From IMG/VR virus record IMGVR_UViG_3300050821_001858, positions 32,001 to 96,000 of that record: a DNA stretch of 64,000 nt; one strand, 5' to 3'. The DNA is from a virus. Position 1 is the stretch's first letter. Every line of letters begins with the position of its first letter. The notes under the pieces are model-generated. The model was not told where the DNA came from and ran no database searches. It saw only the letters and a program-made list of their open reading frames with translations. The position numbers were made by a program, and so were the translations under genes. Below are positions 22,368 to 59,833 of the stretch, piece after piece.

Positions 22368-22443
22368 GCCTTCTAAAGCATTTCTGGTGATGCACTAGTT
22401 TCGTAAGCTAGGGAAAAGGGTCCGAATCCCTTTGGAGGCTCCA
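22368..22443 (+). tRNA. tRNA-Thr(CGT)
   Basis: Cloverleaf, CTAGT-TTCGTAA-GCTAG, T-loop TCCGAAT, CCA. Confidence 0.88.
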
Positions 22444-22666
22444 ATTTCCAAGGGTTATCCATTAAATCGCTCCTATGAGCCTTAGGGCACTTGACATAGG
22501 GTAGCTGTTTGTGGCAAGATAATCTCTTCGTCCCTTGGAATCTTTTAACGTGAGGTATGTATTATGATAGAGTTTAGTTTTGTTTCTTTATACATACTTG
22601 CCGTTGGTATATGTCTCATGTCTTTTGTTCTAGGTATTGCAGTTGGTATAAAAATAGGATGGAACA

Positions 22667-22975
22667 ATGCCCGTAAGAATGACTGATTTGTTTAATGAAG
22701 ATGGTAAGCCACGTCGGCTCATTGAAATTGAACGTGAACAGTTAAAATTCTTAGTGAAACGATGTAATGGAAACGTTGCTCAGATTGCTAAGATCATGGG
22801 TGTTACTCGTAAACAAGCTTATCGACGTTTGTTTAAGACTGGTTTATATACACCTGAGAAACATCGGGTGCATGATAAAGAAACTGGTCAATGGAAAGCA
22901 CCTGTTTTATCAGCTAAACAAGTTGGTAAGGTAAATAAGGTTACACCTAAGGTCAAAGAATATCATTGGACCTAA
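22667..22975 (+). CDS. Fis-like helix-turn-helix protein
   Basis: LIEIEREQL..CNGNVAQIAKIMGVTRKQAYRRL. Confidence 0.75.
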   Translation: MPVRMTDLFNEDGKPRRLIEIEREQLKFLVKRCNGNVAQIAKIMGVTRKQAYRRLFKTGLYTPEKHRVHDKETGQWKAPVLSAKQVGKVNKVTPKVKEYHWT

Positions 22976-22976
22976 T

Positions 22977-23051
22977 GGGGGATTAGTGCTAACGGGAACA
23001 CGACGCACTTGCAATGCGTAATCAAGGGTTCGACTCCCTTATCCTCCACCA
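22977..23051 (+). tRNA. tRNA-Ala(TGC)
   Basis: G3:U70, ACGCA-CTTGCAA-TGCGT, CCA. Confidence 0.93.
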
Positions 23052-23072
23052 TGATTTTAACATGAAGGTTAT

Positions 23073-23495
23073 ATGTTTGGTAAAAATAGTAAAAAACAAG
23101 GTGATAAAGGTTTAGGAGCAGCAATAGCGTATTTTACTGAATGTGAATATACAGTTTGTGTTCCTTTGACTGATAGTCAAGATTATGATTTACTTGTTGA
23201 TACTGGTGAATTCATAAAACGAGTTCAGGTAAGAACAACTTCATATAAAAAACGATCTTTTTATCGTGTTAATCTTCGTGTTATGGGTGGTAATTCAAAA
23301 AAGAATTATATTCATAAAACTGGTGATCAATTGATGTATGATTGGTTATTTGTTTTAATTGAAGATGGTACACAATATCTAATACCTAAAGATGAATTAG
23401 TTGCTAAAAGTTATCTTACTTTAGGTGCAGATAAAAGTAAATATAAAATACGGGAAGGTTTGATAAGGACAGAGGGTTCTGTCGATGCGCTGTAA
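23073..23495 (+). CDS. PD-(D/E)XK endonuclease (intron-associated/homing type)
   Basis: KKQGDKG..P..D..DYDLLVD..KRVQVRT; AT-rich; runs into tRNA-Tyr. Confidence 0.78.
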   Translation: MFGKNSKKQGDKGLGAAIAYFTECEYTVCVPLTDSQDYDLLVDTGEFIKRVQVRTTSYKKRSFYRVNLRVMGGNSKKNYIHKTGDQLMYDWLFVLIEDGTQYLIPKDELVAKSYLTLGADKSKYKIREGLIRTEGSVDAL

Positions 23496-23542
23496 ACGCA
23501 TTCCCTAAGGGCGTGGCGTTCAACTCGACCACCTTCCCACCA
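23452..23542 (+). tRNA. tRNA-Tyr(GTA), atypical D and T arms
   Basis: GGGAAGG/CCTTCCC, ATGCG-CTGTAAA-CGCAT, V-arm, CCA. Confidence 0.78.
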
Positions 23543-23563
23543 TTTTTCGCTTGACAAAAGTTT

Positions 23564-23638
23564 GCCTCTATCGTATAGTGACTATTACACCACCTTTGTA
23601 ACGTGGATACTTCAGTTTGATTCTGAATAGGGGCTCCA
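23564..23638 (+). tRNA. tRNA-Thr(TGT)
   Basis: GCCTCTA/TAGGGGC, loop TTTGTAA, T-loop TTTGATT, CCA. Confidence 0.8.
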
Positions 23639-23660
23639 CTCTAAATTAGGAGAATATATC

Positions 23661-23978
23661 ATGACATTTAGAACGAATATTGTTTTGACGAAAGATACAA
23701 AATCTGAAGATATTGAAAATCAAATGAAAAAAGACTATATTGCTCGACCTCTTAGAGAGGTCGGAGAAGAAGTTCGTCCATTAACAAATTCTAAAACTGA
23801 TGTAATTTATCAAACATTCAAATGTTCAAATTGTGGTTATATTCAAATAGTTGATGTACCAAACACATTTTTTGGTACTGGTGAATGTGAAAAATGTAAT
23901 CATGTAACAAATATGAATGTAGAGGGATGTAATTGTGTCCTTATTCGTGGACCTAAACCTCTTGTATTAACAGAATAA
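23661..23978 (+). CDS. Zinc-ribbon protein
   Basis: CSNCG...CEKC; AGGAG RBS. Confidence 0.65.
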   Translation: MTFRTNIVLTKDTKSEDIENQMKKDYIARPLREVGEEVRPLTNSKTDVIYQTFKCSNCGYIQIVDVPNTFFGTGECEKCNHVTNMNVEGCNCVLIRGPKPLVLTE

Positions 23979-24019
23979 TGACTGGACGTGGCGGTCCTAA
24001 AAACGCTACGATATATAAT

Positions 24020-24094
24020 GCCCATGTAGCTCAGTGATAGAGCGTCCGCCTGAAGAGCGGAGCGTCGGTGGTTTGATTCCATCCTAGGGCACCA
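24020..24094 (+). tRNA. tRNA-Phe(GAA)
   Basis: TCCGC-CTGAAGA-GCGGA; two acceptor mismatches; CCA. Confidence 0.9.
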
Positions 24095-24098
24095 ATAT

Positions 24099-24182
24099 GC
24101 GGGTATGATGTAATGGTAGCCTTGTCGGTTTCAAAAACCGATGTCGAAAGACGTGGGGGTTCGAGTCCCTCTACCCGTACCA
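24099..24182 (+). tRNA. tRNA-Leu(CAA)
   Basis: TCGGT-TTCAAAA-ACCGA, V-arm, CCA. Confidence 0.92.
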
Positions 24183-24580
24183 TTTATGCGGTTCTCTAAG
24201 TACGAGATTGAATTAGGGTGATCCCTTTGCCGCGCCAGTTTATGGGAAGTACTTTCTTCGTGTGGTCGATCCATCACGCAATGTATCAACCTATTTCGCA
24301 TGTCATCATATCCTTGATTGACTTTGTGACACGCTTCCCATACCTTTTAGGAGAGAGTGATGTTACCAGATGGTTTAATGAATATAGATACTTCAGAGTA
24401 TAATGGTAATATTGTCATAGAAATGATGATGAGTTTTTATTGGGGAGAAAATTTTCGAAATACACATACTAATTTAAATCGAATTGGTTGGACAGAAATT
24501 CCGCTGAATATAATGTTTCCTCAAACATATAATGTTCGGGATTATCGACATTACGTTAATCGGTTTTTTTATAAGGATGT

Positions 24581-24781
24581 GTGATGTTTAGTAATGAAGA
24601 TAGAGACTATAAAAATCCTCAGATGTTGACTTCTACTCCACATACAGTTGGAGCGAAATGTTTAGAAATTGATGTGATGAAGTCGTATAATATAAGTTTT
24701 CCTCCTATACAAAATATATGGGGAGGATTTTATCAAACTGTGTCTGTGATAAGATATCTTCGTCAGTTTTTTGATGAATAG
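24581..24781 (+). CDS. Small aromatic-rich protein (dispersed family)
   Basis: Ends YLRQFFDE; stop TAG straddles tRNA-Trp 5' end. Confidence 0.55.
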   Translation: MMFSNEDRDYKNPQMLTSTPHTVGAKCLEIDVMKSYNISFPPIQNIWGGFYQTVSVIRYLRQFFDE

Positions 24782-24853
24782 GTGTGAGCCGGTGGCGGTG
24801 CAGGAAACTCCAAATCTCCATTGCCGAGGGTTCGACTCCCTACACACCTGCCA
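24780..24853 (+). tRNA. tRNA-Trp(CCA), short D-arm
   Basis: AGGTGTG/CACACCT, loop CTCCAAA, G73, CCA. Confidence 0.85.
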
Positions 24854-24859
24854 GTTTAT

Positions 24860-24935
24860 TCCCCCGTAGCTCAGTTGGTAGAGCGAAATGCTGTTAACAT
24901 TAGGGTCGGACGTTCGAGTCGTTCCGGGGGAGCCA
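24860..24935 (+). tRNA. tRNA-Asn(GTT)
   Basis: Canonical cloverleaf, CCA. Confidence 0.94.
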
Positions 24936-24952
24936 TTTTTATAGGACATTTT

Positions 24953-25153
24953 ATGGAGTATATACCTTATGTGGTTAGAATTATGATCAAACAATTTTGG
25001 CATGATCGATGGAAATTGCTCACTAAAGAATATGATTGGGACTACGAATATCTCTTTGGAGAGGGATTAGATTTTCCGGCAATGCCATGGGATCAATTTG
25101 GTCAAGTTCATAATGTAATGATGAAAACAATTTCAGATAGTATATTTTCTTAG
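24953..25153 (+). CDS. Small aromatic-rich protein (dispersed family)
   Basis: AGGA RBS; ends ISDSIFS. Confidence 0.55.
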   Translation: MEYIPYVVRIMIKQFWHDRWKLLTKEYDWDYEYLFGEGLDFPAMPWDQFGQVHNVMMKTISDSIFS

Positions 25154-25157
25154 TTAT

Positions 25158-25232
25158 GGGACCTTCCTCTATCGGCTAGGAGAATCGCCTTTCAAGCGAT
25201 CAAGACGGGTTCGATTCCCGTAGGTCCTACCA
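25158..25232 (+). tRNA. tRNA-Glu(TTC)
   Basis: ATCGC-CTTTCAA-GCGAT, CCA. Confidence 0.93.
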
Positions 25233-25303
25233 AAACATATGCAGTTCGCGGGAACCTGCATTCATTGGCGTCGCCGTGAAAAAATAAAATCCCGCTGAGT
25301 TAA

Positions 25304-25378
25304 GCCTCTTTAGTACTAGTGATAGAACAATCCCTTGGTACGGGATAAGCCTGAGTTTGATTCTCAGAAGAGGCACCA
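25304..25378 (+). tRNA. tRNA-Thr(GGT)
   Basis: ATCCC-TTGGTAC-GGGAT, T-loop TTTGATT, CCA. Confidence 0.88.
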
Positions 25379-25385
25379 GATTTAT

Positions 25386-25463
25386 GCAGCATTGACGGGA
25401 ATTGGTATACCTACTCCGCTTAAAACGGATTGTTTCTCGGTTCGAGTCCGAGATGCTGCACCA
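25386..25463 (+). tRNA. tRNA-Leu(TAA), short variable loop
   Basis: Loop CTTAAAA, A73, CCA. Confidence 0.9.
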
Positions 25464-25469
25464 ATTAAT

Positions 25470-25554
25470 GCGAGAGTGATGGAACTGGTAGACTTGCCGG
25501 TCTAAGAAGCCGGTGCCTTCGGGCGTGGGAGTTCGAGTCTCCCTTTTCGCACCA
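25470..25554 (+). tRNA. tRNA-Leu(AAG) copy 1
   Basis: CCGGT-CTAAGAA-GCCGG, V-arm GCCTTCGGGC, CCA. Confidence 0.9.
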
Positions 25555-25584
25555 AACTTAACCTCAAACAGTGGAGTATATATT

Positions 25585-25797
25585 ATGACTACGAAGAACG
25601 TTAAAGGAATTAAGTTTCATTTGTTCGGTTGTCATGATTTTGATAGACTCGAAGGCGCGGAATATATTGGTGAATTTTCAACTTTAAATGCAGCAAAGAA
25701 ATATGCTGAAGAGGAAATGATTGGAACTGATTATATCTATTTCTTTGTTGTAGAAGTCAAAGCCCAAGGTCCATATGGTGGAGTTGCTTGGAAATAA
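25585..25797 (+). CDS. Hypothetical protein between duplicated tRNA-Leu(AAG)
   Basis: GGAG RBS, MTTKNVKG start. Confidence 0.65.
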   Translation: MTTKNVKGIKFHLFGCHDFDRLEGAEYIGEFSTLNAAKKYAEEEMIGTDYIYFFVVEVKAQGPYGGVAWK

Positions 25798-25802
25798 GTT
25801 AA

Positions 25803-25887
25803 GCGAGAGTGATGGAACTGGTAGACTTGCCGGTCTAAGAAGCCGGTGCCTTCGGGCGTGGGAGTTCGAGTCTCCCCTTTCGCACCA
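25803..25887 (+). tRNA. tRNA-Leu(AAG) copy 2
   Basis: Identical to copy 1 except one base in the acceptor 3' strand. Confidence 0.9.
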
Positions 25888-25899
25888 ATTTAGGATAAT

Positions 25900-25976
25900 G
25901 CGCTAATAGCCCAACGGCAGGAGGCAACGGTCTTAGAAGCCGTACAGTGTCAGTTCGAATCTGACTTGGCGCACCA
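25900..25976 (+). tRNA. tRNA-Leu(TAG), short variable loop
   Basis: ACGGT-CTTAGAA-GCCGT, CCA. Confidence 0.92.
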
Positions 25977-26064
25977 TTTTATGATTGGAAAAAATATTGG
26001 AAAGTATTATTTATGGAACAAATATGACTTTCAAACGTTATCTCCTATAGAAGGGAGGTAACTT

Positions 26065-26286
26065 ATGATAGCAATGGCAATTTCTATCTTATGGTTGCTG
26101 ATTGGTTTGATTGTTATATTAGGTGTAGTATGGCTTGCACTTTATGTTGTTAAGCTATTTACTCCTGTGCCAGATGCAGTTGAAAAAGCTGTTTGGGCAA
26201 TTGTTTTGATATTATGTTTGATTTCAGCCCTAGGCTTACTAGGGGGTGGATCAGTAGGAATACCACATCCACCTTGGATGCATTAA
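26065..26286 (+). CDS. Small two-TM membrane protein
   Basis: GGAGG RBS, hydrophobic, followed by terminator-like hairpin. Confidence 0.75.
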   Translation: MIAMAISILWLLIGLIVILGVVWLALYVVKLFTPVPDAVEKAVWAIVLILCLISALGLLGGGSVGIPHPPWMH

Positions 26287-26457
26287 CTAGGGGGCTTCTT
26301 TGCCCCCTTCCTTTTATTTAAATAAAACGAAGAAATGGGTTCGATTCCCATACTTTTATAGGTCGCGGAAAGCCCGTTCGAAAGGGTAGACACAGACACC
26401 GAAAGTAGAGAGTAATTAACTCGAAATCACTATTAAAGTGAGCCATATGGATACGGC

Positions 26458-26558
26458 ATTCGTTGCTATAAGAGCGGAAACGGAGATTGTTCGAATCCTC
26501 CCTGCGCCGACAGGCGTTGTAGTTTAATGGGCAAAACACCGCTCGCCTATAGCAGAAT
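26458..26558 (+). ncRNA. YrlA/Y-RNA-like circularly permuted tRNA mimic
   Basis: Terminal stem ATTC..TGCTATA/TATAGCA.GAAT, GAGCGG/CCGCTC, then T-arm (GTTCGAATC), loop-closed acceptor stem, D-arm (TAGTTTAATGGGCAAAAC). Confidence 0.7.
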
Positions 26559-26563
26559 TTTAT

Positions 26564-26639
26564 GGGTCATTCGCCAAGTGGAAAGGCACGGGTTTTACAC
26601 GCCCTGATTGCGAAGGTTCGATTCCTTCATGACCTACCA
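26564..26639 (+). tRNA. tRNA-Val(TAC)
   Basis: Loop TTTACAC, CCA. Confidence 0.9.
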
Positions 26640-26689
26640 GATGTCTCGGGAGTGAGAGGGCGACAGTCGAAAATTTTTTGAAAAAATTC

Positions 26690-26718
26690 TTGACTGTCCC
26701 TTCGACTTGCTGTAGAGT
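26690..26718 (+). promoter_or_regulatory. Sigma70-type promoter for large ncRNA
   Basis: TTGACT-N17-TAGAGT, -35 inside an inverted repeat with A/T tracts. Confidence 0.7.
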
Positions 26719-26729
26719 ACTGAAACTGA

Positions 26730-27959
26730 GAACAGAGTTGAGAGAAATCGAAACACAACATAGGAGGCAATCATGTGACCGCAAGGTCATAAACAGCCAA
26801 CAACTTTAATTGTTTTTGTGTGTAAAAGTGTGTAGAGAGTTTAAAGGTTAGGGAGAAATCACGGTTCGAGTCCGTGCGTTGTGGGGAAACCTGCTTTGTC
26901 GTCTAATGGTTAGGACGCTCCCGTTTCTATTCGTCTTTGGACGGATTAGGGCAAGCCCCCCTGAATGTGTGGGTATTAATATCAGAAAGTGTGTTATCAC
27001 AAGGTAGTGTACACTACCTACCTACCGGGAGATAGGTACGCAAGCCTATCTCCCATTTAAAATTATCAGATGTATTACAGATTGGGGGCATAGCCTCGTC
27101 AGGATAAGCCAGGGTGACTTGGTAAAAGCGGTAAGTCTTCCTACAGACCCGCACTATTAGCAATAATAGCCCATCTATGCAGGTCCGGTCTTCCCCGTGA
27201 GGGGCAATCGATGGCATCGGTTGTAAAGCAGGACGGTTAGGTAAGGTCGAAAGATAGGTTCGAGGGTAACACTGTAGAGCCAAGTCCCGAAAGGACACCT
27301 TACGTTCAAACTAACTTACTGTGTATAGATAACGGATAGTGGGATACAGAGCATGAGACTTGCAATCTAATGCGACCCGCAAAATGGAGGATAATGGCTG
27401 ACGTTAACACAGTCGGACAGCATCCAAGAATTTGGTTTAGTAGCTCGCAAGGCGAAGGACAGTTGCCGTGTTGTATTTGGTACCTCAAAAGGGTATTGAG
27501 CAACAGTCGCAGCACGTCAAGTAGGTTTCCGATAATTGAAACTAGGTGTTTCAATCTCACTGTGAATGAGATGTCGGTTGGTTCAAATCCAACTTATCAT
27601 GCAGAAAAAGCAAAGTCTGCGACTGTGTTGAATGAAAGTGGTTTAATCCTATGAGTCCTTTGGACTAACATAGGGGATTTGTTACTCGCAAGGTGACAGT
27701 CTTTGATAGCGTGATTTGTCATAGAGGGTTAGCCCCCTCGAATAGCTCGCAAGGCTAGTGGTGAAAAGCATGTCGAATAGTTCAACATGAAAGAGGTACC
27801 GCCCCCTCTATAATCAAGGCAACCATGTGACGATACTGGATAGTTGTCCAGTGGAAATCGGGGAACCTTTCTTAAATGTGCGCTCCGTCGCCGCATCCCT
27901 CGCAGGATGGAGGATAATCCCGTAAGTTGTCATGTAGAACCCGTATTCTCAGGGTTTTA
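26730..27959 (+). ncRNA. Large ornate ncRNA, GOLLD-like, with embedded tRNA-like modules
   Basis: ~1.2 kb without credible ORF, many GCAA/GAAA-capped hairpins, 3' hairpin AGAACCC-GTATTCTCA-GGGTTTT, located in a tRNA array; family assignment from memory, boundaries approximate. Confidence 0.65.
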
Positions 27960-27964
27960 TCTTT

Positions 27965-28083
27965 TTATCGCGTGGGTGTCCAATGTTCCGATGTGCAGGA
28001 CACATCTGGCTTGACCATTGCGCGGAGTAATCCCAGGTCAAGGAATAACTGATTACCAGTCGGAACAACCTTCCACGCGATAA
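27965..28083 (+). ncRNA. Unassigned structured RNA
   Basis: TTATCGCGTGG/CCACGCGATAA, TGTTCCGA/TCGGAACA, CTTGACC/GGTCAAG, possible GTAATC/GATTAC pseudoknot. Confidence 0.55.
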
Positions 28084-28095
28084 GAGGATAATGAA

Positions 28096-28272
28096 ATGTA
28101 TTTTCAAACAACATCAAAAGCTATTAAGCAATGGTTACTTGATAGTAGAATATCTCTTATCTATGAAAGATATGATAACCCATTTAATGATTTTTTTCTC
28201 CGGTTATATCAAACACAGATTAATAATAATGTACATTTTGTAATTCGACAACATTTATTTACGCGCGATTAA
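28096..28272 (+). CDS. Small aromatic-rich protein (dispersed family)
   Basis: 58 aa read manually, AGAGGA RBS, ends IRQHLFTRD; stop inside tRNA-Val. Confidence 0.5.
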   Translation: MYFQTTSKAIKQWLLDSRISLIYERYDNPFNDFFLRLYQTQINNNVHFVIRQHLFTRD

Positions 28273-28337
28273 CTCATTGGTAGAGTGCAACTTTGACATA
28301 GTTGAAGTAAAAGGTCCGATTCCTTTATCGCGCACCA
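28263..28337 (+). tRNA. tRNA-Val(GAC)
   Basis: CAACT-TTGACAT-AGTTG, T-loop TCCGATT, CCA. Confidence 0.9.
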
Positions 28338-28341
28338 TTAT

Positions 28342-28420
28342 GGTCGGGTAGCTTAAAATATAAAGTAGCTGAAGCCTTGAAACTTCGGCAATGTAGGTGA
28401 AATCCCTACCCTGATCGCCA
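28342..28420 (+). ncRNA. tRNA-like RNA with 7-bp anticodon stem and 8-nt loop
   Basis: GGTCGGG/CCTGATC-G-CCA, GCTGAAG-CCTTGAAA-CTTCGGC, T-arm GTAGG-TGAAATC-CCTAC. Confidence 0.7.
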
Positions 28421-28495
28421 ATTAAATCCTAGAGTAAGTCCCCTTTGTTTTTCGACAAGGTGAGATATAACCATTGTAGCATCTAGGATTATTAT

Positions 28496-28594
28496 GCCTC
28501 GGTAGCTTAGAAAATAGAGCGCATCCCGTTTAATATTCATATGGTGGATATTGGGAGGGGTGAGACGTAGGTGAAATACCTACCAGAGGCACCA
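28496..28594 (+). ncRNA. tRNA-like RNA with ~45-nt elongated anticodon arm
   Basis: GCCTC/GAGGC-A-CCA, same GG-less D-loop and GTAGG-TGAAATA-CCTAC T-arm as 28342. Confidence 0.7.
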
Positions 28595-28609
28595 ACGATA
28601 GAGGATATT

Positions 28610-28795
28610 ATGGCACGCAAATCTTTTTTGGATTGTAAACATGAGAATGTTCAAGAGTTTACGGAATGTTGTCTTGATTGTGGATATAATATTTGGACAA
28701 CAAAAAAAGAATATCTGAAAGACCTTCAGCGACAAGCTGGTGGGAAAAACGTTGAAGAAATTCGAAAGCTTGAAAAACAGCTTGGAATAGGTTAA
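28610..28795 (+). CDS. Small Cys/His zinc-binding protein
   Basis: CKH...CCLDCG; GAGG RBS. Confidence 0.6.
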   Translation: MARKSFLDCKHENVQEFTECCLDCGYNIWTTKKEYLKDLQRQAGGKNVEEIRKLEKQLGIG

Positions 28796-28796
28796 T

Positions 28797-28869
28797 GCGA
28801 GGTTAGTTTAGTGGCAGAATAGGCGCTTGATAGGCGTTTGGCTCGGGTTCGATTCCCGTACTCGCACCA
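28797..28869 (+). tRNA. tRNA-Ile(GAT)
   Basis: GGCGC-TTGATAG-GCGTT, CCA; irregular acceptor/T junction. Confidence 0.82.
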
Positions 28870-28875
28870 TTTCAT

Positions 28876-28950
28876 GGACCAGTGGCTTGACGGGGAAGCA
28901 GTAGACTTTTAATCTTCGATATAGGGGTTCGAATCCCCTCTGGTCTTCCA
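28876..28950 (+). tRNA. tRNA-Lys(TTT)
   Basis: Loop CTTTTAA, CCA, U73. Confidence 0.9.
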
Positions 28951-29080
28951 ATAGAATGCATTAGTATATTCTACAGATATTAATGTGAAAAGTATACGGT
29001 TCCGGTTGCATGTTTTGTAGAGAGTATATTGTAAACGTAAAGGGGGACAGTCTTCAAAACGGGAACCCAATAAATATCGA

Positions 29081-29320
29081 ATGCTAAGCGGATATGGGTT
29101 GACAACGGCTCACATTTTGTATAGAATACCGGACTACCAGAACATCCTTCAAACGTTTGTCTGGCAAGAATTTGACTTTCATCCTGAGTATCCTCATTTG
29201 AGGAAGTTTCTTGTCTTCTGGCATAAGAAGATTGAAGGACCGATCTTTAAGGTCGAAGTTGCTCATGCTGGTTATGAAAACAAGATTGAACTTGCAAAGG
29301 ATATCTGGAAATTACAATGA
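29081..29320 (+). CDS. usg: Usg-family protein (alphaproteobacterial)
   Basis: GYGLTTAHILYRIPD..LQTFVWQEFD..PEYP.L..FL.FW...IEGPI..V.VAH. Confidence 0.88.
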   Translation: MLSGYGLTTAHILYRIPDYQNILQTFVWQEFDFHPEYPHLRKFLVFWHKKIEGPIFKVEVAHAGYENKIELAKDIWKLQ

Positions 29321-29535
29321 ATATGATTAAAGATATAATTGAAGAGTTGTATGGAAATATGTTCGATGCAACTAATACATCAACAATTTATGATTGGCGT
29401 AGTGCTTTTGAATATTATAAAGTAATAGGATATGATGAAATGAGATATCTGGATATACGACGATCAGAATTTTCCCAGATGCCCTTAGGGTATATGTGGA
29501 ATAATCACGATAAGATTTTTAGATCAGTGGAATAA
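29317..29535 (+). CDS. Small aromatic-rich protein (dispersed family)
   Basis: ATGA-coupled, ends HDKIFRSVE. Confidence 0.55.
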   Translation: MNMIKDIIEELYGNMFDATNTSTIYDWRSAFEYYKVIGYDEMRYLDIRRSEFSQMPLGYMWNNHDKIFRSVE

Positions 29536-29536
29536 T

Positions 29537-29613
29537 GGACCAATGGCTCGATTGGAATGGCACGCCGCTCTTAACGGTTGTTTATAAGGGTTCGATTCCC
29601 TTTTGGTCCTCCA
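29537..29613 (+). tRNA. tRNA-Lys(CTT)
   Basis: Loop CTCTTAA, CCA. Confidence 0.88.
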
Positions 29614-29620
29614 TTTTAAT

Positions 29621-29695
29621 GCGTCTGGACGCTGCTAGTGTGGCGACTCCCCTGTCACGGGAGCGAGCGGGGAGCGTAACCCCGTAGACGCGCCA
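29621..29695 (+). tRNA. tRNA-Asp(GTC)
   Basis: CTCCC-CTGTCAC-GGGAG, G73, T-loop AGCGTAA. Confidence 0.85.
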
Positions 29696-29858
29696 ATTCC
29701 CCGTATCTCGCTAGTAGGTACAGCATTATATTGATTAGCTGGTACGTGGGATAAAACAGGTCACAAAGAGAGTTGAGAGCCTTTACATGTGACCCGTTGG
29801 ATAAAAATGCTGATAGTTTATCGCAATGAATTGTGGCTCATGGTTTTATAGGTGATCA

Positions 29859-30044
29859 ATGATCCGTGATACGGAAGCTAGAGAAATTGAAAGATTGTAT
29901 GCTGTCTATGCAAAGACTGTAGGGTATTTTGGAGAAGCTTTGAAGACTATACCTGATCATCCTTTGACTTTTTTTCCTATTAAACCGTATCAACGTAGTA
30001 TTAGAAGATACATACAAGAGACAATAAGTTATTTTTTTAGTTAA
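29859..30044 (+). CDS. Small aromatic-rich protein (dispersed family)
   Basis: AGGTGA RBS, ends ETISYFFS. Confidence 0.55.
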   Translation: MIRDTEAREIERLYAVYAKTVGYFGEALKTIPDHPLTFFPIKPYQRSIRRYIQETISYFFS

Positions 30045-30045
30045 A

Positions 30046-30122
30046 CAGGGCGTAGCTCAGTCTGGTAGAGTTCTCGTTTTGGAAACGAGCGGTCGCACGT
30101 TCGAGTCGTGCCGTCCTGACCA
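30046..30122 (+). tRNA. tRNA-Pro(TGG)
   Basis: CTCGT-TTTGGAA-ACGAG, CCA. Confidence 0.93.
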
Positions 30123-30142
30123 ATTATTCACCATAAAAATCT

Positions 30143-30216
30143 CAGGGAGTAGCTTAGTGGTAAAGTTCTCGCTTCGGAAGCGAGCGACAAAGGTTCGATT
30201 CCTTTTTCCCTGACCA
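30143..30216 (+). tRNA. tRNA-Pro(CGG)
   Basis: CTCGC-TTCGGAA-GCGAG, CCA. Confidence 0.92.
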
Positions 30217-30323
30217 TTTCATAAAAAGTTCCTCTAAATAAAAATCTTTTTTACTCGATTATTGCGATTGCTAAGAGTTTTCTCCCCTAAATACTACGTC
30301 GAACACAAAGACGCGGAGGGAAA

Positions 30324-30683
30324 ATGAATTTAGATCAATATCAGCGCCTCTTTGTGATGTTAGAACTAGTCTTACACGAACAAAGGGAGTTAAAGAAGAT
30401 GGTAGTAGATTTTACAGCACTTATAAGCCAAGTTGCTAACACTGTTGGTGCAGAACAGTCAGCAATTGTTGCAATTCAGGGTATCGCAGCAGAAATTCAG
30501 GCAGCAGTAGCTTCCGAAGATTCAGCAGCAGCAACCGAGATTGCATCTCTTGCATCTCAGCTTTCGGCTTCAGCTAATGCTCTAGCAGCAGCAGTTGCAA
30601 CCACGGTTCCGGCTAACACTGTAAGTAACACTGTTGTTGCGAACACTGTTCCGGTTACCAATACCGCTCCGGTATCTAACTAA
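30324..30683 (+). CDS. Ala-rich helical protein with ANT-rich tail
   Basis: GGAGG RBS, upstream CTAAATA, downstream terminator. Confidence 0.7.
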   Translation: MNLDQYQRLFVMLELVLHEQRELKKMVVDFTALISQVANTVGAEQSAIVAIQGIAAEIQAAVASEDSAAATEIASLASQLSASANALAAAVATTVPANTVSNTVVANTVPVTNTAPVSN

Positions 30684-30944
30684 TACGCCTTTCCAGGGCG
30701 TCGTGTTAGGGGGGCAGCAATGTCCCCCTTTCTTTTATAAGGGAGATCAAGATGCGAGATTTTCGTAGAGGAAGAGAATATGGGCGTGTTGAGATTGTGC
30801 AGGTTTCTGTTGCTAACACAGCCAATACTGCTAATACGACAAGTAACACTAGTACAACCACCAATCCTTTAGCTAACGTTGTAAATCAAGTAGCTAATGT
30901 GGGTAGTATCTTTTCAAGTTTAGGTAATCTATTCAAACGTTAAT

Positions 30945-31035
30945 GCGCTTCGGTGTTGGACATGAGATGGACTTATAAACCATTTTGCAGCGGACGGCTG
31001 TATCTAACTAGGTTCGAATCCTAGGAGGCGCACCA
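30945..31035 (+). tRNA. tRNA-Ile(TAT)-like with long variable arm
   Basis: GCGCTTC/GAGGCGC, loop CTTATAA, V-arm TGCAGC/GCTGTA, CCA. Confidence 0.75.
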
Positions 31036-31077
31036 TTTTTCCTTGACTGGTAGGACTTAATCTGCTAGGATGGTATC

Positions 31078-31479
31078 ATGAAAGCTATGATGTCAATTGA
31101 CCAATATGCTGATCCATTGCCCTTGTTGACAATGTTCGTGCATGGTTGCCCCCACAAGAGGGTTTATCGTCCGTATCTTCAAAGGATGCGAGATGATTTC
31201 ACACATTCGGCTCAGAGGCAACTTAAGTTGCCGTTCATCAAGAACGAGTATAATTCAGGTTATATGATTGATTATCCTATCGATATTAACGTGGTCTATA
31301 CTAATCCCATGAGTGAGGATATGGATCACTTGATGGAAGCATTGTATATGATCATGGATGGTCCTTCAGGTTCTTTGAAGGGTCCTTCAGTTCTAAAGGA
31401 TGATCGATTGATCAAAGGTTTTTCTTGTCGGATATATTATCCCGAAGATAAAACCAAACGTGAAACGGAGAGATGGTAA
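31078..31479 (+). CDS. RusA-like nuclease-fold protein
   Basis: DMDHLMEAL..MDG...LKDDRLI resembles RusA DxDN..K..D...DD motif; upstream TTGACT-N17-TAGGAT. Confidence 0.5.
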   Translation: MKAMMSIDQYADPLPLLTMFVHGCPHKRVYRPYLQRMRDDFTHSAQRQLKLPFIKNEYNSGYMIDYPIDINVVYTNPMSEDMDHLMEALYMIMDGPSGSLKGPSVLKDDRLIKGFSCRIYYPEDKTKRETERW

Positions 31480-31651
31480 TGGTAACATATGTTTATATTT
31501 TAGTATTCTGTGTTGCCACCAACTTTGCATCTTGTCAACCGATTAAAGTTTTTGCACATAGTTCGGGTTGTGTTGCAGAGATAAAATCTAATCCTATTTC
31601 AAGACACGGATACTATGATTGTTTTGAATTACAAGTACATGAGGATTAATT

Positions 31652-31843
31652 ATGGGTTCAACATCAGCAGCAAAAAAGCGTTCCGACGCTTATCAATTTG
31701 GAGAACAAGCACGACATTTTTTCAAGACGTTTAATGGTAACAGGTTAGCCCAAGATGGTAAGCCTGTTCCTCACCCTAATGATCTTGAACAACGTAAACG
31801 TTTTCCAGAACGTAAACCTAAGAAAGCAAAACAGGAAGGTTAA
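31652..31843 (+). CDS. Small basic protein
   Basis: GAGG RBS; stop inside tRNA-Ser(CGA). Confidence 0.6.
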   Translation: MGSTSAAKKRSDAYQFGEQARHFFKTFNGNRLAQDGKPVPHPNDLEQRKRFPERKPKKAKQEG

Positions 31844-31920
31844 GTCGCCAGGGAGCGACCACGGCTTCGAACACCGTAGGTACCTAACGGTATAGGATTC
31901 GAGTTCCTCGCCTTCCACCA
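31834..31920 (+). tRNA. tRNA-Ser(CGA), 8/4-like
   Basis: Loop TTCGAAC, V-arm, 4-bp T stem AGGA/TCCT, CCA. Confidence 0.8.
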
Positions 31921-31964
31921 TTTTTTCCTTGACAATTCAAGGAAACTCTGATACATTCCATTAT

Positions 31965-32039
31965 GCTAGCGACCAAGGATTTGGGACCTCGGCTGTGAAC
32001 CGGGCGTAAGTTGTGGCTTGACTCCACCCGCTAGTACCA
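31965..32039 (+). tRNA. tRNA-His(GTG), A73 without G-1, 4-bp T stem
   Basis: CTCGG-CTGTGAA-CCGGG; GCTAGCG/CGCTAGT-A-CCA. Confidence 0.82.
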
Positions 32040-32066
32040 TTTTTCTCAAACCATGGAGTATATATT

Positions 32067-32324
32067 ATGACTATTACTGTTGCTGATTTGGTTCCGGGAG
32101 CGTTTTTGGTTAACGTCAATAATGATATTTTGGTTATTCTTGGACCGTCATCCAAAAAAGAAAATCATCTGAAGGCTCTTCTTGTTGATAATTTGGGTGT
32201 TGAAGTTTCTCGATTTGAGATTAGTCATCTCGTTGAGGCTCTTAATACGAGTGAGATGCGTTTAGTTGATCTTGAGGAAGGGGAAAACGATATGCAGGAA
32301 GTATCAGAAACGGAAAAGGTTTAA
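32067..32324 (+). CDS. Hypothetical protein
   Basis: GGAG RBS. Confidence 0.65.
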   Translation: MTITVADLVPGAFLVNVNNDILVILGPSSKKENHLKALLVDNLGVEVSRFEISHLVEALNTSEMRLVDLEEGENDMQEVSETEKV

Positions 32325-32333
32325 TATAATAAA

Positions 32334-32421
32334 GGAAGGATGTGTGAGTGGTTTAAACAGCTACCCTGGAAAGGTAGTATACCGAGAGGTATCGTCGGTT
32401 CGAATCCGACTTCTTCCGCCA
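32334..32421 (+). tRNA. tRNA-Ser(GGA)
   Basis: Canonical class II cloverleaf, G73, CCA. Confidence 0.94.
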
Positions 32422-32432
32422 TTTAATAGAAT

Positions 32433-32520
32433 GGATAGTTGGCAGAGTGGATGATCGCACTTGTCTTGAAAACAAGCGTACCGAGAGGTACCGTGGGTTC
32501 GAATCCTACACTATCCGCCA
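32433..32520 (+). tRNA. tRNA-Ser(TGA)
   Basis: Canonical class II cloverleaf, G73, CCA. Confidence 0.94.
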
Positions 32521-32537
32521 TTTAAAAGAGACGTGAG

Positions 32538-33140: not shown

Positions 33141-33196
33141 CCACGGATGTACTGGCAAGTTAGTTGGGGAGTTGGAAGCCCTTACAAACCGTTTAT

Positions 33197-33273
33197 AGCG
33201 CGGACAAGCTTCGGTAGGCTGGCATGTCTCATAAGCATGTGTAAAGTGGGTTCGACCCCCACCTGCGCAACCA
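33197..33273 (+). tRNA. tRNA-Met(CAT), initiator-like 1:72 mismatch
   Basis: A1xA72 mismatch, CATGT-CTCATAA-GCATG (lacks the 3 G-C pairs), CCA. Confidence 0.82.
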
Positions 33274-37206: not shown

Positions 37207-37207
37207 T

Positions 37208-37288: not shown

Positions 37289-37289
37289 T

Positions 37290-46490: not shown

Positions 46491-46492
46491 AA

Positions 46493-54132: not shown

Positions 54133-54285
54133 GTGCTTTTGATTATGGGTTTATTGCTGATAGAATATTCAATATGGTTATGTCCCCTATTTTTACCGAA
54201 TGTCTTAAACACGCACCAATGACTAATCATCGATTGTTTACTGAACAACTTGCTATGTTTACTCGAATGGAACGAACGATACAAA

Positions 54286-54870
54286 ATGGATTTGCCAAAT
54301 AAAAAGTTTCCTGTGATTTACTCAGACCCGGCGTGGTCTTTTATGACCTTTTCTAACAAAGGAAAGGGTCGATCCCCGGAGCAGCATTATCCTTGTTTGA
54401 ATTTACCAGATTTGAAAGCAATTCCAGTAGGGGATATTGCTGAGAAGAATAGCGTTCTTTTGATGTGGACAATCGATACTCATATTCCTCAGGCTCTTGA
54501 TTTAATGAAATGTTGGGGATTTGAATATAAGACGGTTTGTTTTTATTGGGCTAAGTTGAATAAGTCCGCCCCGGAACATGAATGGAAAGAAAAGGATTTC
54601 TTTAAAGGACTTGGTTATTATACGCGAGCTAATCCCGAGCAATGTCTTATTGGAACGCGAGGAAAAGGATTGACACGTAAAGGTAAAGATGTCCCCCGCC
54701 TGATTATATCAAAGCGTCGAGAACATTCCCGTAAACCAGATGAAGCTTATAAGCGTATCATGCGTTTGTATGATGGTCCTTATATTGAACTATTCGCTCG
54801 CCAATCTTGGCCAGAATGGGAAGTTTGGGGAAACGAAATTAATAAGTTTGAGGTAGCTGATGGCAAATGA
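54286..54870 (+). CDS. MT-A70 family adenine methyltransferase
   Basis: YSDPAW, WGFEYKT, GYYTRAN.E, REHSRKP, IELFAR, WGNE. Confidence 0.92.
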   Translation: MDLPNKKFPVIYSDPAWSFMTFSNKGKGRSPEQHYPCLNLPDLKAIPVGDIAEKNSVLLMWTIDTHIPQALDLMKCWGFEYKTVCFYWAKLNKSAPEHEWKEKDFFKGLGYYTRANPEQCLIGTRGKGLTRKGKDVPRLIISKRREHSRKPDEAYKRIMRLYDGPYIELFARQSWPEWEVWGNEINKFEVADGK

Positions 54871-56297: not shown

Positions 56298-56702
56298 ATG
56301 ACTGTTGGTGATATTCTACATCGTGACCAAGCATTGAAAGGCTATTCGCTTGCAGCCGTTGAGCAAATGGCAATTCATTGGTTGATGATGTCGCAGATTT
56401 TTGCGGGACGTAAGATCGATGCTATCAAGCTTCGTCGCGCTGCAACTGGTGATGGGCTGAAGGAAGCCAAGGATTACGTTGAAGAGATTGAGGCTAAACT
56501 TAAGCCTTCCACTTACGCACCGGTTAATCCTCCGTTTGCTCTTACGGAGGTTCAATATAAGGAAGTGTTGCGTCGGCTTGATAAGCTTGAGCAAGATGCT
56601 TATGATCTTTTCCAGATTGTCGGTGATCATGATAAGAAAATCCGACGTGTTAATAAGAGAGCGTTTAGAGAGTTACCGGAGCATGCACGCAATGGGGATT
56701 AA
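56298..56702 (+). CDS. Protein with ribosomal L7/L12 C-terminal-like motif
   Basis: KIDAIKLRRAATGDGLKEAKDYVE. Confidence 0.75.
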   Translation: MTVGDILHRDQALKGYSLAAVEQMAIHWLMMSQIFAGRKIDAIKLRRAATGDGLKEAKDYVEEIEAKLKPSTYAPVNPPFALTEVQYKEVLRRLDKLEQDAYDLFQIVGDHDKKIRRVNKRAFRELPEHARNGD

Positions 56703-57248
56703 TACCGTAGCTGTTCTTTTTAATGATGTGGCACATCAGATGCCTGATCGTATGTATCGGGCAGTTGTGGATTATCGTTATGAAAAGAATGAGCATTTTG
56801 GTTTGGGGACGGTGATTTCTGCTGCCCATGCCGATCACTATCAGGTTGTAGTTGTGCAAGGTAACACGGGATGGACGCTTGACAAAGCCCCTGATCTTCC
56901 GTTATACTGCCAGGATCAATTGGCGGAATGCCTTCGTCGGCACGGTTGGAGGGTTACGAAAAATGTTCGCTCGGCATCCAAAAGAATTTCTGGTCTATAA
57001 TAATAAGCCCGCTTGGGGCGTCATTATAGATAATACCGATCAAGCTGTGCTCCATCTTGTGCGCTATGAAAAGGCACGCAAGGCGGATTTTCATCATGTG
57101 TATTACATCGCTCCGCAGTACCTCGAAAAAATGAGTGTTGGCGAGGCGACTTTTCTTTGGGGTGATGAACGCGGCATTTCTTCGTTTGATGTTGTTCCCC
57201 TTGCCGTGGTAAATAAGGTAAAGGAACTGTATAATAAGGAAAACTAAA

Positions 57249-58106
57249 ATGGCTAAAAAAAAGAATAAGGGAACAGAATATGAAATCAATTTTGTTGAAA
57301 TTTTAACGAAAGCAGGTTTAGCCTCGCCGGGGCATACTACGGGAGGAAATGGTACCGACGCTTATATTTGTGATTTCTTGGTTGAACTTAAGAAGAGTAA
57401 GAAAGCTCATTATCTTCAAAAGACTTTACATTGGATTAATGGTAAAGGTTGGCAATTTGCTGAACCTGAAGAGAAAACCTCTCAAGTAGAGTTTATGAAA
57501 TGCTTAGAAACGTTGCCGAGTATTCTTGAATATATCAATGAAAATTGGCCAAAGCCAACAGGGAATTATGAAATTGATGTTGAACGTATTGTGAATTTAG
57601 AGGATATTCAAAAGCACGCAAAGATTACTAATGATCAAATGATGGATATGATTAGGACATTCTATTATGATAAGAGAAATACTTATCTTCATGTGGGGAG
57701 CGGTTTTGGTCTGTACCATTTTAACGATGATCATGGACATTTTCTTACACCTAGATTTGGTGGTGGCGCTGCTAAAATGAGAGCGCGTCTTAAGAAAACA
57801 AAGACACCGAAAGAGGAAGGAAAAAAAATACAGTACCACTTTCAGTTGCAGTTGGAGTTAACTTCGCTTCCAAAATCACCTATTGACTTGAACGATCCGG
57901 TTATGCTACAATCCTTCATCGATAGACACCGGGACGGCTTTATCTCGGGAAAATGGAAGATAGAACATTGGGATCGTCTTAAGCCTCTTCTTAGACTTGG
58001 CTTTATTACATCGTTACCTCCTAAACCGATAAGGAAAGACAATGAACAAGTTTCAGGCGGCTTTCGAAGCGAAGCGGGCTCGTTTAGTCACAGCCTTGCG
58101 CTCTAA
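57249..58106 (+). CDS. Putative PD-(D/E)XK nuclease
   Basis: KGTEYE...TDAY..LVELKK. Confidence 0.5.
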   Translation: MAKKKNKGTEYEINFVEILTKAGLASPGHTTGGNGTDAYICDFLVELKKSKKAHYLQKTLHWINGKGWQFAEPEEKTSQVEFMKCLETLPSILEYINENWPKPTGNYEIDVERIVNLEDIQKHAKITNDQMMDMIRTFYYDKRNTYLHVGSGFGLYHFNDDHGHFLTPRFGGGAAKMRARLKKTKTPKEEGKKIQYHFQLQLELTSLPKSPIDLNDPVMLQSFIDRHRDGFISGKWKIEHWDRLKPLLRLGFITSLPPKPIRKDNEQVSGGFRSEAGSFSHSLAL

Positions 58107-58657
58107 GGAAACTGGCGTCATTTTGACGCTGCCGCGCCCAAAGCGTCATTATGATGTGTTTGTGTCAAACAACATCCCCCTTGAGGAAAGAACCAAGTAT
58201 GATTGTGGGTTTTTCGATCCGCAGGAAAATGATTTCCTCAAGCAGGGTCGGGGTGATGGGGAGTATCCTCTTGATTCCGTTAGGGTGTTTGTGGTATGAT
58301 TGAACAAAATTTTTTCGTCAAAAGACTTGGACGTATTCATGAGAAAACGACTAAAAAGCTTAAAATTTTTGTAGATTTTAAGCTTTATCCTTTTCATCCT
58401 TTTGATATGGCTAGAAATATTGATAATGTTAACCTTATGTATAATATTCAACTTCACGATCATGAATGGCAAATATTGTACGAACAGTGGTTTCAGAGGT
58501 AAAATGTTTAATTATGATCGATTCGATGAAGTGAAAAGGGTGTTGTATATTGCAACAAATATGCATTTAGGTAATCCTTATGTATATTATAAAGGTATTG
58601 ATCTATCGATACCTTTATATCGAGGATGGGGAACTATCCTTAGAACAGGATTGACAA

Positions 58658-59008
58658 GTGTTTTGGGAGCGTTTGACGCATAACGAACAAGATCGATACT
58701 GGTCCCTCTCGCAAAGGCTTAAGAGGTATGTGACGGCTTGTCTTCAATTTCCTGGTGTTGAAAAGGCTATGATAGAGTGGTTGAAGGCTGCTCATGAAGA
58801 GCGCGAAGCAATCTGCCGACGTGAAGAGCGTAAGAGTAACCATTTTACTCATAATGTCGCCAATCACGTTCATTATGACCAAGAAACCATCCGAATGCAC
58901 TTGGAGTTGGAATTGAATTTTTGCCGAGATCATATGGTTAATTCAGTGTGTACCGATGCTGAGTTAATTGAGATTGAATTACTGGCATGCAAGGGATGGG
59001 GAATATGA
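58658..59008 (+). CDS. Hypothetical protein
   Basis: 116-aa ORF. Confidence 0.5.
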   Translation: MFWERLTHNEQDRYWSLSQRLKRYVTACLQFPGVEKAMIEWLKAAHEEREAICRREERKSNHFTHNVANHVHYDQETIRMHLELELNFCRDHMVNSVCTDAELIEIELLACKGWGI

Positions 59009-59505
59009 ACCATACTGAAGTTGGGGAGATCAAAGGTAAGATCAACACTAAGGTTTTTAACCGTTATCTTAATATAGCTAAAAATGATGTTGTTGATAAT
59101 TGGTGGGTTATAGCAAACGAACTTTCAAGATTTAACGGTTGTTTTACTATTAGAAATCCTCTTCAAAGAGCTATAGCTGATATGCGATATCTAGATAAAC
59201 TAAATAAACCCCAGAGGTAAAAAACAAAATGATACTTCCTGAATCTTTAGTAGGTTATATTGCATCGGTCTATATTTGTCTAGCATCAGCGACCGTTTGT
59301 GATAATTCAAATGCTCTTTGGACAAATTGGGCTTATATGCGCCCTGATAATGGTATGGTCGAACTTTCGTCCCCTGAGAAATTGAAGCAGATTTGTATCG
59401 ATACAATGAAAAAAAATATTCCGAAGATCAATGCTCCTTATTTTACCATGGACGGGTCGAAAGAGGGCGAGCGATTAAAAATTCGGATTGAATGCGAAAA
59501 AGGTG

Positions 59506-59536
59506 TTGACATCTGACCCAAGATGCAGTATAAATA
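59506..59536 (+). promoter_or_regulatory. Composite sigma70 / T4-late promoter for tmRNA
   Basis: TTGACA-N17-TATAAA; the -10 is also TATAAATA. Confidence 0.7.
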
Positions 59537-59540
59537 AGAC

Positions 59541-59833
59541 ACTGGACGATTAGTTGATGGTTCAACTAAACACGAAACACTCGGGGGCAGTACCCGATAC
59601 CTCCACCAAAAGCACATACCCTACCCAAAGGGTTGTTGACAGGGTTGGAAGGATCAACGCACAGGATGTGCTTTTGATGGGGGTAAAATAGGTTCGACTT
59701 CGTGTGGAATGGAATCGGATAGTCGGTCGGTATATAACTGTCGCATCAAACGACAACTTTGCTCGGGAACTCGCCCTCGCGGCGTAATTCCCTACGGAGT
59801 TCGGTAGCTTCCTTGGCAACAGAAAAGCTACCA
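59541..59833 (+). ncRNA. ssrA: Two-piece (circularly permuted) tmRNA
   Basis: Acceptor piece TCGGG-GGCAGTA-CCCGA-TACCTCC-A-CCA ends 59608; coding piece starts GGGGGTA at 59679 (G3:U70); tag (V)ASNDNFARELALAA-stop 59740-59787. Confidence 0.93.

Follow-up and report, generated by a model that had tools for sequence, protein, structure and literature searches.

Whether a phage that carries tRNA genes together with other parts of the translation apparatus possesses one integrated system, or a set of parts that merely lie near each other, is the question raised by a 64,000-nucleotide stretch of viral DNA (hereafter the window). The window corresponds to bases 32001-96000 of the 113,066-bp linear IMG/VR virus contig IMGVR_UViG_3300050821_001858. 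A sequence-only reading had proposed a near-complete translation support kit between positions 22368 and 59833, interpreted as an integrated counter to host defences that destroy tRNA or stall ribosomes. A near-complete decoding set, an RNase P RNA, a GOLLD RNA, a short release factor gene of the RF1 type, and genes for an ADP-ribosyltransferase (ART)-fold enzyme and a phosphoesterase are found in a single island, and genes for a methionine aminopeptidase (MetAP) and a transfer-messenger RNA (tmRNA) are found downstream of it. The interpretation judged probable, if short of firm, is that of a T4-like phage tRNA island, with an alphaproteobacterial host probable, ringed by loose, independently gained accessories that ease dependence on the host.

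The tRNA island

The island and its nine non-canonical members are as follows.

22368-39776, + strand: tRNA island with 42 tRNA-shaped genes (ARAGORN at default and relaxed thresholds, Rfam, our own scanner, folds)
23452-23542, + strand: Tyr-GTA-like gene, non-canonical (relaxed ARAGORN/own scanner)
28342-28420, + strand: CCA-ended tRNA mimic with T loop GTGAAAT and an 8-nt anticodon loop (scanner, fold)
28496-28594, + strand: CCA-ended tRNA mimic with T loop GTGAAAT and an 18-bp arm replacing the anticodon arm (fold z -5.7)
29621-29695, + strand: Asp-GTC, non-canonical, folds as a cloverleaf (relaxed ARAGORN/own scanner)
30945-31035, + strand: Ile-TAT, 91-nt body with a long variable arm, folds as a cloverleaf (scanner)
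31965-32039, + strand: tRNA-His(GTG), non-canonical, with G1-U72, A73 and no G-1, folds as a cloverleaf (scanner)
37208-37288, + strand: tRNA-like Arg-TCG gene lacking a D hairpin, 1 nt ahead of a canonical Arg-GCG (scanner, fold)
38121-38203, + strand: Arg-TCT, paralogue of the Arg-TCG gene, without a D hairpin (scanner, fold)
39625-39695, + strand: Gln-TTG, non-canonical, folds as a cloverleaf (relaxed ARAGORN/own scanner)

ARAGORN at its default threshold identified 30 tRNAs at 22368-39776 in addition to the tmRNA, and Rfam likewise returned 30 tRNA matches at the gathering score, which bears out the check that the sequence-only reading had called for. One of the ARAGORN calls, a 'His' at 27529-27602, is a tRNA-like module within the GOLLD RNA and lacks CCA, leaving 29 default calls among the 42 genes. 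Relaxed ARAGORN and the scanner, which required a 7-bp acceptor stem, a 5-bp T stem and CCA, add Thr-TGT, Trp-CCA, Ser-CGA and Ser-GCT, the four genes that need the relaxed threshold. The nine listed genes complete the set; seven of them have a readable anticodon, and the two at 28342-28420 and 28496-28594 lack a normal anticodon loop. By their predicted identities, all 20 amino acids are covered only if the non-canonical genes are counted, because Asp, His and Tyr rest on them, and the assignment of Trp depends on a relaxed-threshold call. With these qualifications, the earlier count of about 40 CCA-encoded tRNAs for all 20 amino acids stands, as does the claim of several tRNA mimics in the form of the two genes just named.

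The 42 genes have several properties in common. Each encodes its 3' CCA and keeps a paired acceptor stem, 13 neighbouring pairs are spaced only 1-12 nt apart, and T occupies position -1 in 32 of them (base frequency 0.30; p = 7e-10). In addition, five open reading frames (ORFs) of 50-115 codons end in a TAA or TAG that forms nucleotides 8-10 of the next tRNA (28096-28272, 31652-31843, 34437-34616, 38220-38381 and 38420-38776). A PHROG search with these five ORFs gave no match, so their status as genes is unproven. Cleavage by RNase P at such junctions would remove the stop codons and generate non-stop mRNAs, a possible tie between RNase P and tmRNA.

Several anticodons are unusual: Leu-AAG occurs twice (25470-25887), Arg-GCG is present (37290-37367) but no Arg-ACG, and Ile is read by TAT in the gene listed above. 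A PD-(D/E)XK endonuclease gene at 23073-23495 overlaps the Tyr-like tRNA gene by 44 nt; this gene and a SegE-like GIY-YIG endonuclease gene of the contig (19734-20246) are reminiscent of the homing endonucleases in the tRNA region of T4.

A phage-encoded RNase P RNA

36571-36937, + strand: type-A RNase P RNA, 367 nt (RF00010; 167.8 bits against a cut-off of 100, full length, model positions 1-367)

The RNase P RNA that the sequence-only reading had placed in the kit is confirmed by this full-length match. Both strands of the catalytic-core helix P4, GAGGAAAGUC...ACAGAACCC, are present together with the conserved joining regions, and the L15 loop keeps the GGU that pairs with the tRNA 3' RCCA (CGGGUCGGG aligns to the model CGGGUagg). 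Helices P13 and P14 are deleted, 43 model positions being missing after GUGAAA, and the specificity domain is thereby reduced. P13 and P14 vary among bacterial RNase P RNAs, and thus these helices do not define the RF00010 family. Judged by its conserved elements, the RNA looks catalytically complete. Host contamination is ruled out by the phage genes and tRNA genes that flank it. A search of the contig for rnpA, the gene of the RnpA protein subunit, found none.

The full-length match, P4, the joining regions and the L15 GGU are shared with the bacterial type-A RNA of RF00010 as represented by Escherichia coli M1 RNA (rnpB). The phage copy differs from the bacterial type in lacking P13/P14, in being carried by a virus within a tRNA array, and in having no rnpA in sight. 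The tRNA cluster of T4 is likewise packed and cotranscribed, contains small stable RNAs and has homing-endonuclease-like genes nearby; however, its 8 tRNAs are processed wholly by the host RNase P, whereas about 40 tRNAs and a phage-encoded catalytic RNA are found here. A perfect sigma-70 consensus (TTGACA-17-TATAAT, 36904-36932) falls within the last 34 nt of the RNase P RNA and faces the downstream Arg tRNA genes.

RNase P RNA is not confined to this contig. A pattern scan of IMG/VR for the P4 5' strand returned at least 114 loci, 32 of which also have the 3' strand, and of 16 loci put to Rfam, 14 proved to contain a full-length RNase P RNA. At least 4 further loci came from a second pattern, one of them running off its locus end. 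As a result, at least 18 IMG/VR contigs, up to 463 kb in length, have an RF00010 match, and in all but one the RNA lies inside or beside a dense tRNA array. The exception (L045) has a single tRNA about 1.8 kb from the RNase P RNA and may represent a host or prophage edge. An alignment of 14 phage copies contains 47 invariant columns, and within it the P4 pair covaries from C-G to G-C (GTCC...CCCGG versus GTCG...CCCCG), two of the six GTCG copies differing by one base further along the P4 3' strand. P13/P14 are absent from five of the 14 copies, namely the present one, L014, L038, L006 and L012.

Ten of the other RNase P RNA records, with 12-69 tRNAs each, were searched over their whole length. 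RnpA was found in none of them, although three are 97-100% complete. GOLLD and a polymerase like that of the present phage were also found in none of the ten, and a gene with the RF-1 domain in only one. Thus, phage RNase P RNA is recurrent, tied to large tRNA arrays and spread over unrelated phage lineages, with a protein partner never seen. No cultured phage with an RNase P RNA was seen: blastn with two consensus-like phage copies matched only unannotated metagenomic records and one bacterial record. No publication on a virus-encoded RNase P RNA was found in the literature searched, which leaves out most subscription journals, and the survey of huge phages in PMC7162821 does not mention RNase P (0 occurrences). 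One of the contigs with an RNase P RNA, of 202 kb, also has a group I intron in its tRNA array (L068:3325-3528).

A short RF1 gene with a conserved in-frame UGA

33790-34446, + strand: short RF1-type release factor, 218 codons, ending in TAA, with PPT and GGQ motifs and no domain 1

The release factor named by the sequence-only reading is a real RF1-type protein, but it comprises domains 2-4 only and its gene is interrupted. ORF lists show only a 136-aa ORF with the RF-1 domain; an in-frame TGA lies at codon 36 (33895-33897), aligned to a conserved Trp of RF1. With this TGA read as Trp, the product aligns to RF1 residues 112-338 (E = 1e-37). It lacks domain 1 and scores 175.8 bits against the 423 required by TIGR00019 (prfA). 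Assignment to ArfB (16 bits against a cut-off of 100) or to PrfH (44 bits against 167) was rejected.

Relatives of the gene occur in 252 viral contigs of IMG/VR, and the best 80 of these 252 were examined, with 79 genes scored. TGA stands at codon 36 in 78 of the 79 and at codon 38 in the remaining one. All 79 encode PPT and GGQ, 75 end in TAA, and 78 of the best 80 have the same MK(R) start with no room for domain 1. These relatives form 53 clusters at 90% identity and diverge down to 48% identity, while the codons around the TGA vary synonymously. TGA is otherwise an ordinary stop at these loci, where it terminates 183 of 516 long ORFs. The conservation of the TGA throughout the family rules out a pseudogene or a sequencing error and, in combination with the synonymous variation around it, marks the stop as a selected feature, presumably a programmed gate, and not damage. 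The simplest mechanism would be read-through by tRNA-Trp, in which case synthesis of the factor would depend on poor termination at UGA. A tRNA reading UGA (anticodon UCA) was found neither in the contig nor, by ARAGORN, in the 80 related loci. A conserved hairpin after the UGA was considered and is not general, the z value falling below -1.5 in only 18 of 53 representatives. A near-consensus sigma-70 site is present within the gene directly past the UGA (33932-33960).

tRNA genes are found at 67 of the 80 short RF1 loci (588 tRNAs in 747 kb), and the short RF1 is therefore a regular companion of phage tRNA islands. The nearest bacterial copies are those of the alphaproteobacteria Jiella, Gemmobacter, Thalassospira, Sphingomonas and Sphingobium. 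Among cultured strains, the UGA at codon 36 is present in Gemmobacter caeni DSM 21823 (L313:3001-3678), Jiella sp. LLJ827 (L310) and Thalassospira xianhensis (L314); the Gemmobacter caeni gene lies in a tRNA array with eight flanking tRNA genes.

An early in-frame stop codon followed by a continuation in the same frame is described as unknown for RF2 and RF1 genes in the review of Atkins et al. (PMC5009743). The autoregulation of prfB (RF2) treated there is the closest parallel, since both are class I factor genes with an early in-frame UGA and expression that is, or here would be, tied to UGA termination. However, prfB employs a +1 frameshift, whereas the frame of the short RF1 is unchanged (read-through) and its PPT motif implies that the factor should not read UGA itself. 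No publication on a UGA-interrupted RF1 gene was found within the same range of literature as above.

The phage and its probable host

The contig is estimated by CheckV to be 63% complete, and all of its credible genes are on the + strand. It encodes a T4-type DNA polymerase, UvsX, a replicative helicase, a primase, ribonucleotide reductase, thymidylate synthase and a gp59 helicase loader. The DNA polymerase has its best match, at about 45% identity, in T4-like cyanophages, which are the nearest deposited phages; megablast and blastn searches against GenBank phages for close relatives gave nothing useful. The phage is therefore a deep-branching, uncultured T4-like phage of roughly 180 kb. It is thus smaller than the huge phages of more than 200 kb surveyed by Al-Shayeb et al. 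2020 (PMC7162821), which encode many tRNAs, tmRNA, RF1/RF2 and other translation factors that were read as redirecting host translation. Unlike the RF1/RF2 of those phages, its release factor lacks domain 1 and is putatively UGA-gated.

Three independent pointers suggest that the host is probably an alphaproteobacterium: the alpha type of the tmRNA, the tRNA-His without G-1, and the nearest bacterial copies of the short RF1. The combination of G1-U72, A73 and no G-1 constitutes the tRNA-His identity elements of an alphaproteobacterial group that includes Caulobacter (PMC3064791), and the phage tRNA-His, with G1-U72, A73 and no G at -1, agrees with that group.

Other RNA and protein genes

27461-27955, + strand: conserved 3' core of GOLLD RNA (RF02032; 174.5 bits against a gathering score of 150, model positions 1-416)
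59502-59878, + strand: two-piece permuted alpha-type tmRNA with tag VASNDNFARELALAA (ARAGORN, Rfam)
41481-42233, + strand: type I MetAP (TIGR00500, 251.7 bits against 171, full length)
32538-33140, + strand: ART-fold protein of the H-Y-E type (model and fold search)
35702-36403, + strand: calcineurin-like phosphoesterase of the ApaH / lambda phosphatase / Pnkp-phosphatase group (profile matches)
43977-44534, + strand: weak Metallophos_2 match beside the heptose genes (21.4 bits against a cut-off of 27)
56298-56702, + strand: L7/L12-like 134-aa protein, similar over residues 34-71 to the first half of the bL12 C-terminal domain

GOLLD was not among the parts previously proposed. It sits in the context of the phage tRNA array with the His-like tRNA module (27529-27602) embedded in it, and the gene-poor stretch from about 26640 upstream of the core is probably its variable 5' part. 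GOLLD is known near phage tRNA islands, sometimes with tRNAs in its linker (PMC12286853), and that source, citing Morgado 2020, places it in phage and mycobacterial tRNA arrays. The present copy shows no notable difference from the published GOLLD, lying beside tRNA genes with a tRNA inside the linker in both cases. This part of the island is thus already known.

The tmRNA and the MetAP, both previously proposed, are solid. The tmRNA exceeds the gathering scores of RF01849 (92.2 bits against 50) and RF04321 (68.6 against 47) and is best described as alpha type; its tag reads NDNFA...LALAA, in a frame ending in AA. It lies 20 kb downstream of the island, and smpB was searched for in the contig without success. 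A beta-type permuted tmRNA occurs in a different, 80-kb phage contig (L054:8789-9083).

The large family of the ART-fold protein (834 matches) is mainly viral, and the protein occurs in identical form on a separate contig of 183 kb. Its structure is predicted with a pLDDT of 93, and Foldseek retrieved pertussis toxin S1, Tpt1/KptA and DarT1 at E values of about 1e-4, with TM-scores of only 0.35-0.43. Within the family, H5 and D85-E86 are invariant and Y43 is nearly so. The match to Tpt1/KptA (PF01885) reaches 16 bits against 26 and recurs weakly in 5 of 58 family members, and the match to PARP is likewise below threshold. The ART half of the earlier Tpt1/ART-fold assignment is therefore supported by the predicted model and the fold search, while membership in Tpt1 is not.

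Of the two phosphoesterases proposed, the one at 35702-36403 is well founded and is as close to ApaH as to the phosphatase domain of bacterial Pnkp; a search for related loci with this protein as the query found none. The product of 43977-44534 stays below the Pfam cut-off, and its link to translation is doubtful. The L7/L12-like protein is a similarly marginal case, with a likeness of 28.6 bits against 25.9 that covers only half of the C-terminal domain and 26 bits against 84 for TIGR00855, so that it does not qualify as bL12. The search for RNA repair partners covered the ligases Rnl1 and Rnl2 but not RtcB or a kinase, and neither ligase had a match in the contig.

Evolutionary and functional interpretation

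The island occupies 17 kb (22.4-39.8 kb), and the span of about 20 kb that separates it from the tmRNA holds a heptose pathway, nucleases, an MT-A70 methylase and unknown genes. The parts of the proposed kit bear mostly on tRNA supply and maturation, termination and rescue, and they do exist. Nevertheless, to call them integrated overstates the case, as they are not co-inherited and some 20 kb of unrelated genes falls within the span. The 'kit' is accordingly a co-location in this phage and not a conserved system. Only the 22.4-39.8 kb island is coherent, as a tRNA array with independently mobile accessories for tRNA maturation, termination and rescue. No anti-defence gene was recognised in the contig, although no search aimed at one was made.

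Interpreted in this way, phage translation would be largely freed from the tRNA pool and the processing capacity of the host. With spacers of 1-12 nt, U at -1 and an encoded CCA, the tightly packed tRNA genes would be transcribed as multimers that RNase P would cut at each 5' end. The phage RNase P RNA would pair with host RnpA, as the lack of a phage RnpA here and in the 10 other records suggests, and would thereby raise or retune RNase P activity. The short RF1 would be made only when a ribosome reads UGA-36 as Trp, so that its synthesis would be gated by UGA termination (RF2 activity) or by read-through (the level of tRNA-Trp). The tmRNA would serve ribosome rescue and the MetAP N-terminal processing. 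The selective pressure could be a tRNA-targeting defence, host shut-off or plain demand; the computed results do not separate these.

Several points weigh against this interpretation. Judged from the alignments, the loss of P13/P14 may leave the RNase P RNA with weak or altered activity. RNase P RNA, GOLLD and the short RF1 occur independently across phages; more specifically, the P4 core motif of RNase P lies within about 6 kb of a short RF1 at only 1 of 80 loci. Two of the parts, the L12-like protein and the second phosphoesterase, match only weakly and lie a long way from the island. Since the contig is only 63% complete, the missing part could hold RnpA, SmpB, an RNA ligase or a tRNA that reads UGA. 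Finally, the IMG/VR records are taken as viral on the classification of IMG/VR and CheckV.

The counter-defence function originally proposed, in which attacked tRNAs would be replaced, RNase P would mature the replacements, RNA ends would be healed or marked by the phosphoesterase and the ART-fold protein, and stalled ribosomes would be cleared by tmRNA together with the release factor, is a possible but distinctly less probable explanation. It would account for the complete decoding set, the many non-canonical tRNA bodies and the joint presence of tmRNA and an RF1-type factor. Bacterial Pnkp heals RNA ends, and the resemblance of the phosphoesterase to its phosphatase domain also favours this explanation. 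Moreover, PMC10264068 argues that phage tRNAs evade tRNA-targeting defences. The idea in that source, that phage tRNAs replace or outlast attacked host tRNAs, is the same; its evidence there is anticodon-loop changes in T5-like phages, whereas the present phage tRNAs come without host counterparts to compare. However, the phosphoesterase matches ApaH equally well, and with neither Rnl1 nor Rnl2 found in the contig the RNA repair pathway is incomplete. In addition, the modules are found separately in other phages, about 20 kb of sugar-pathway and DNA-modification genes interrupts the claimed span, and the sequence names no defence target.

Ordinary codon supply or host-range adaptation, with the RNase P RNA, the interrupted release factor gene and the odd tRNAs as decaying passengers acquired from hosts, seems improbable. 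Big phages commonly have large tRNA arrays (PMC7162821), and the loss of P13/P14, the stop codon inside the release factor gene and the many tRNAs under default detection thresholds could be taken for decay. Decay is nevertheless difficult to reconcile with an invariant RNase P core and a covarying P4 across the phage copies, with a TGA that stays at one codon in genes 48-64% identical while the flanking codons vary synonymously, with paired acceptor stems and CCA in all 42 tRNA-shaped genes, or with an odd tRNA-His that keeps the identity set matching alphaproteobacterial HisRS. Slightly less credible still is the explanation that the RNase P RNA is no working ribozyme but acts as a decoy or sponge, titrating RnpA or pre-tRNAs of the host and so slowing host tRNA maturation. 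RnpA was found in none of the 11 phage records (this one and the ten others) and the tRNA-binding (specificity) domain is reduced, as a decoy would permit; yet the catalytic core nucleotides, needless for a protein sponge, are invariant in all 14 aligned phage copies, and the gene lies among tRNA genes that need 5' processing in every contig but L045.

Beyond the favoured interpretation of an island with loosely attached accessories, a more speculative extension, which we consider rather unlikely as a whole, is that the island forms a self-timed, phage-owned tRNA economy. The P13/P14-less ribozyme, working with host RnpA, would accept non-cloverleaf pre-tRNAs, the loss of these helices making room for the products of genes that lack a D arm, have odd T loops or are spaced by 1 nt. 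The short RF1, made once phage tRNA-Trp builds up or host RF2 runs low, would act as a read-through sensor through UGA-36. Cuts by RNase P at the five ORF-tRNA junctions would yield non-stop mRNAs, which would explain the tmRNA. To our knowledge, a read-through sensor in release factor genes was once proposed but has never been found in bacteria.

Significance of the findings

RNase P RNA is regarded as a housekeeping ribozyme of cells and organelles. Its occurrence in unrelated large phages, among tRNA genes and without a protein partner, would represent a new class of virus-encoded ribozyme, and these RNAs would amount to a natural experiment on how small an RNase P can be and which substrates it selects. 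The UGA-gated short RF1 would constitute a widespread, conserved read-through device in a release factor gene, an arrangement listed as unknown in the review PMC5009743. About a dozen non-canonical CCA-ended tRNAs bear on how far a phage can replace host decoding, and on why phages carry tRNAs.

Additional observations

A complete-looking NDP-heptose pathway lies at 44531-50227, made up of a cytidylyltransferase-like enzyme, a SIS isomerase (GmhA-like), a HAD phosphatase (GmhB-like), a GHMP kinase, a transaldolase and a glycosyltransferase of the GT-B type. These genes are unrelated to translation and may serve the sugar modification of DNA or of the virion. An adenine methyltransferase of the MT-A70 family is encoded at 54250-54870 (78.5 bits).

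Global recoding of TGA or TAG was considered and rejected. TGA terminates 34 of 76 long ORFs, and the same-frame ORF pairs split by a stop codon show no excess of TGA (9) over TAA (20) or TAG (8). TAG terminates only 5 of the 76 long ORFs, and a lone tRNA of the amber-suppressor type (anticodon CTA) is found about 6.8 kb ahead of the window start (contig positions C1:25187-25262), far from the island; such a suppressor would face competition from an RF1-type factor.

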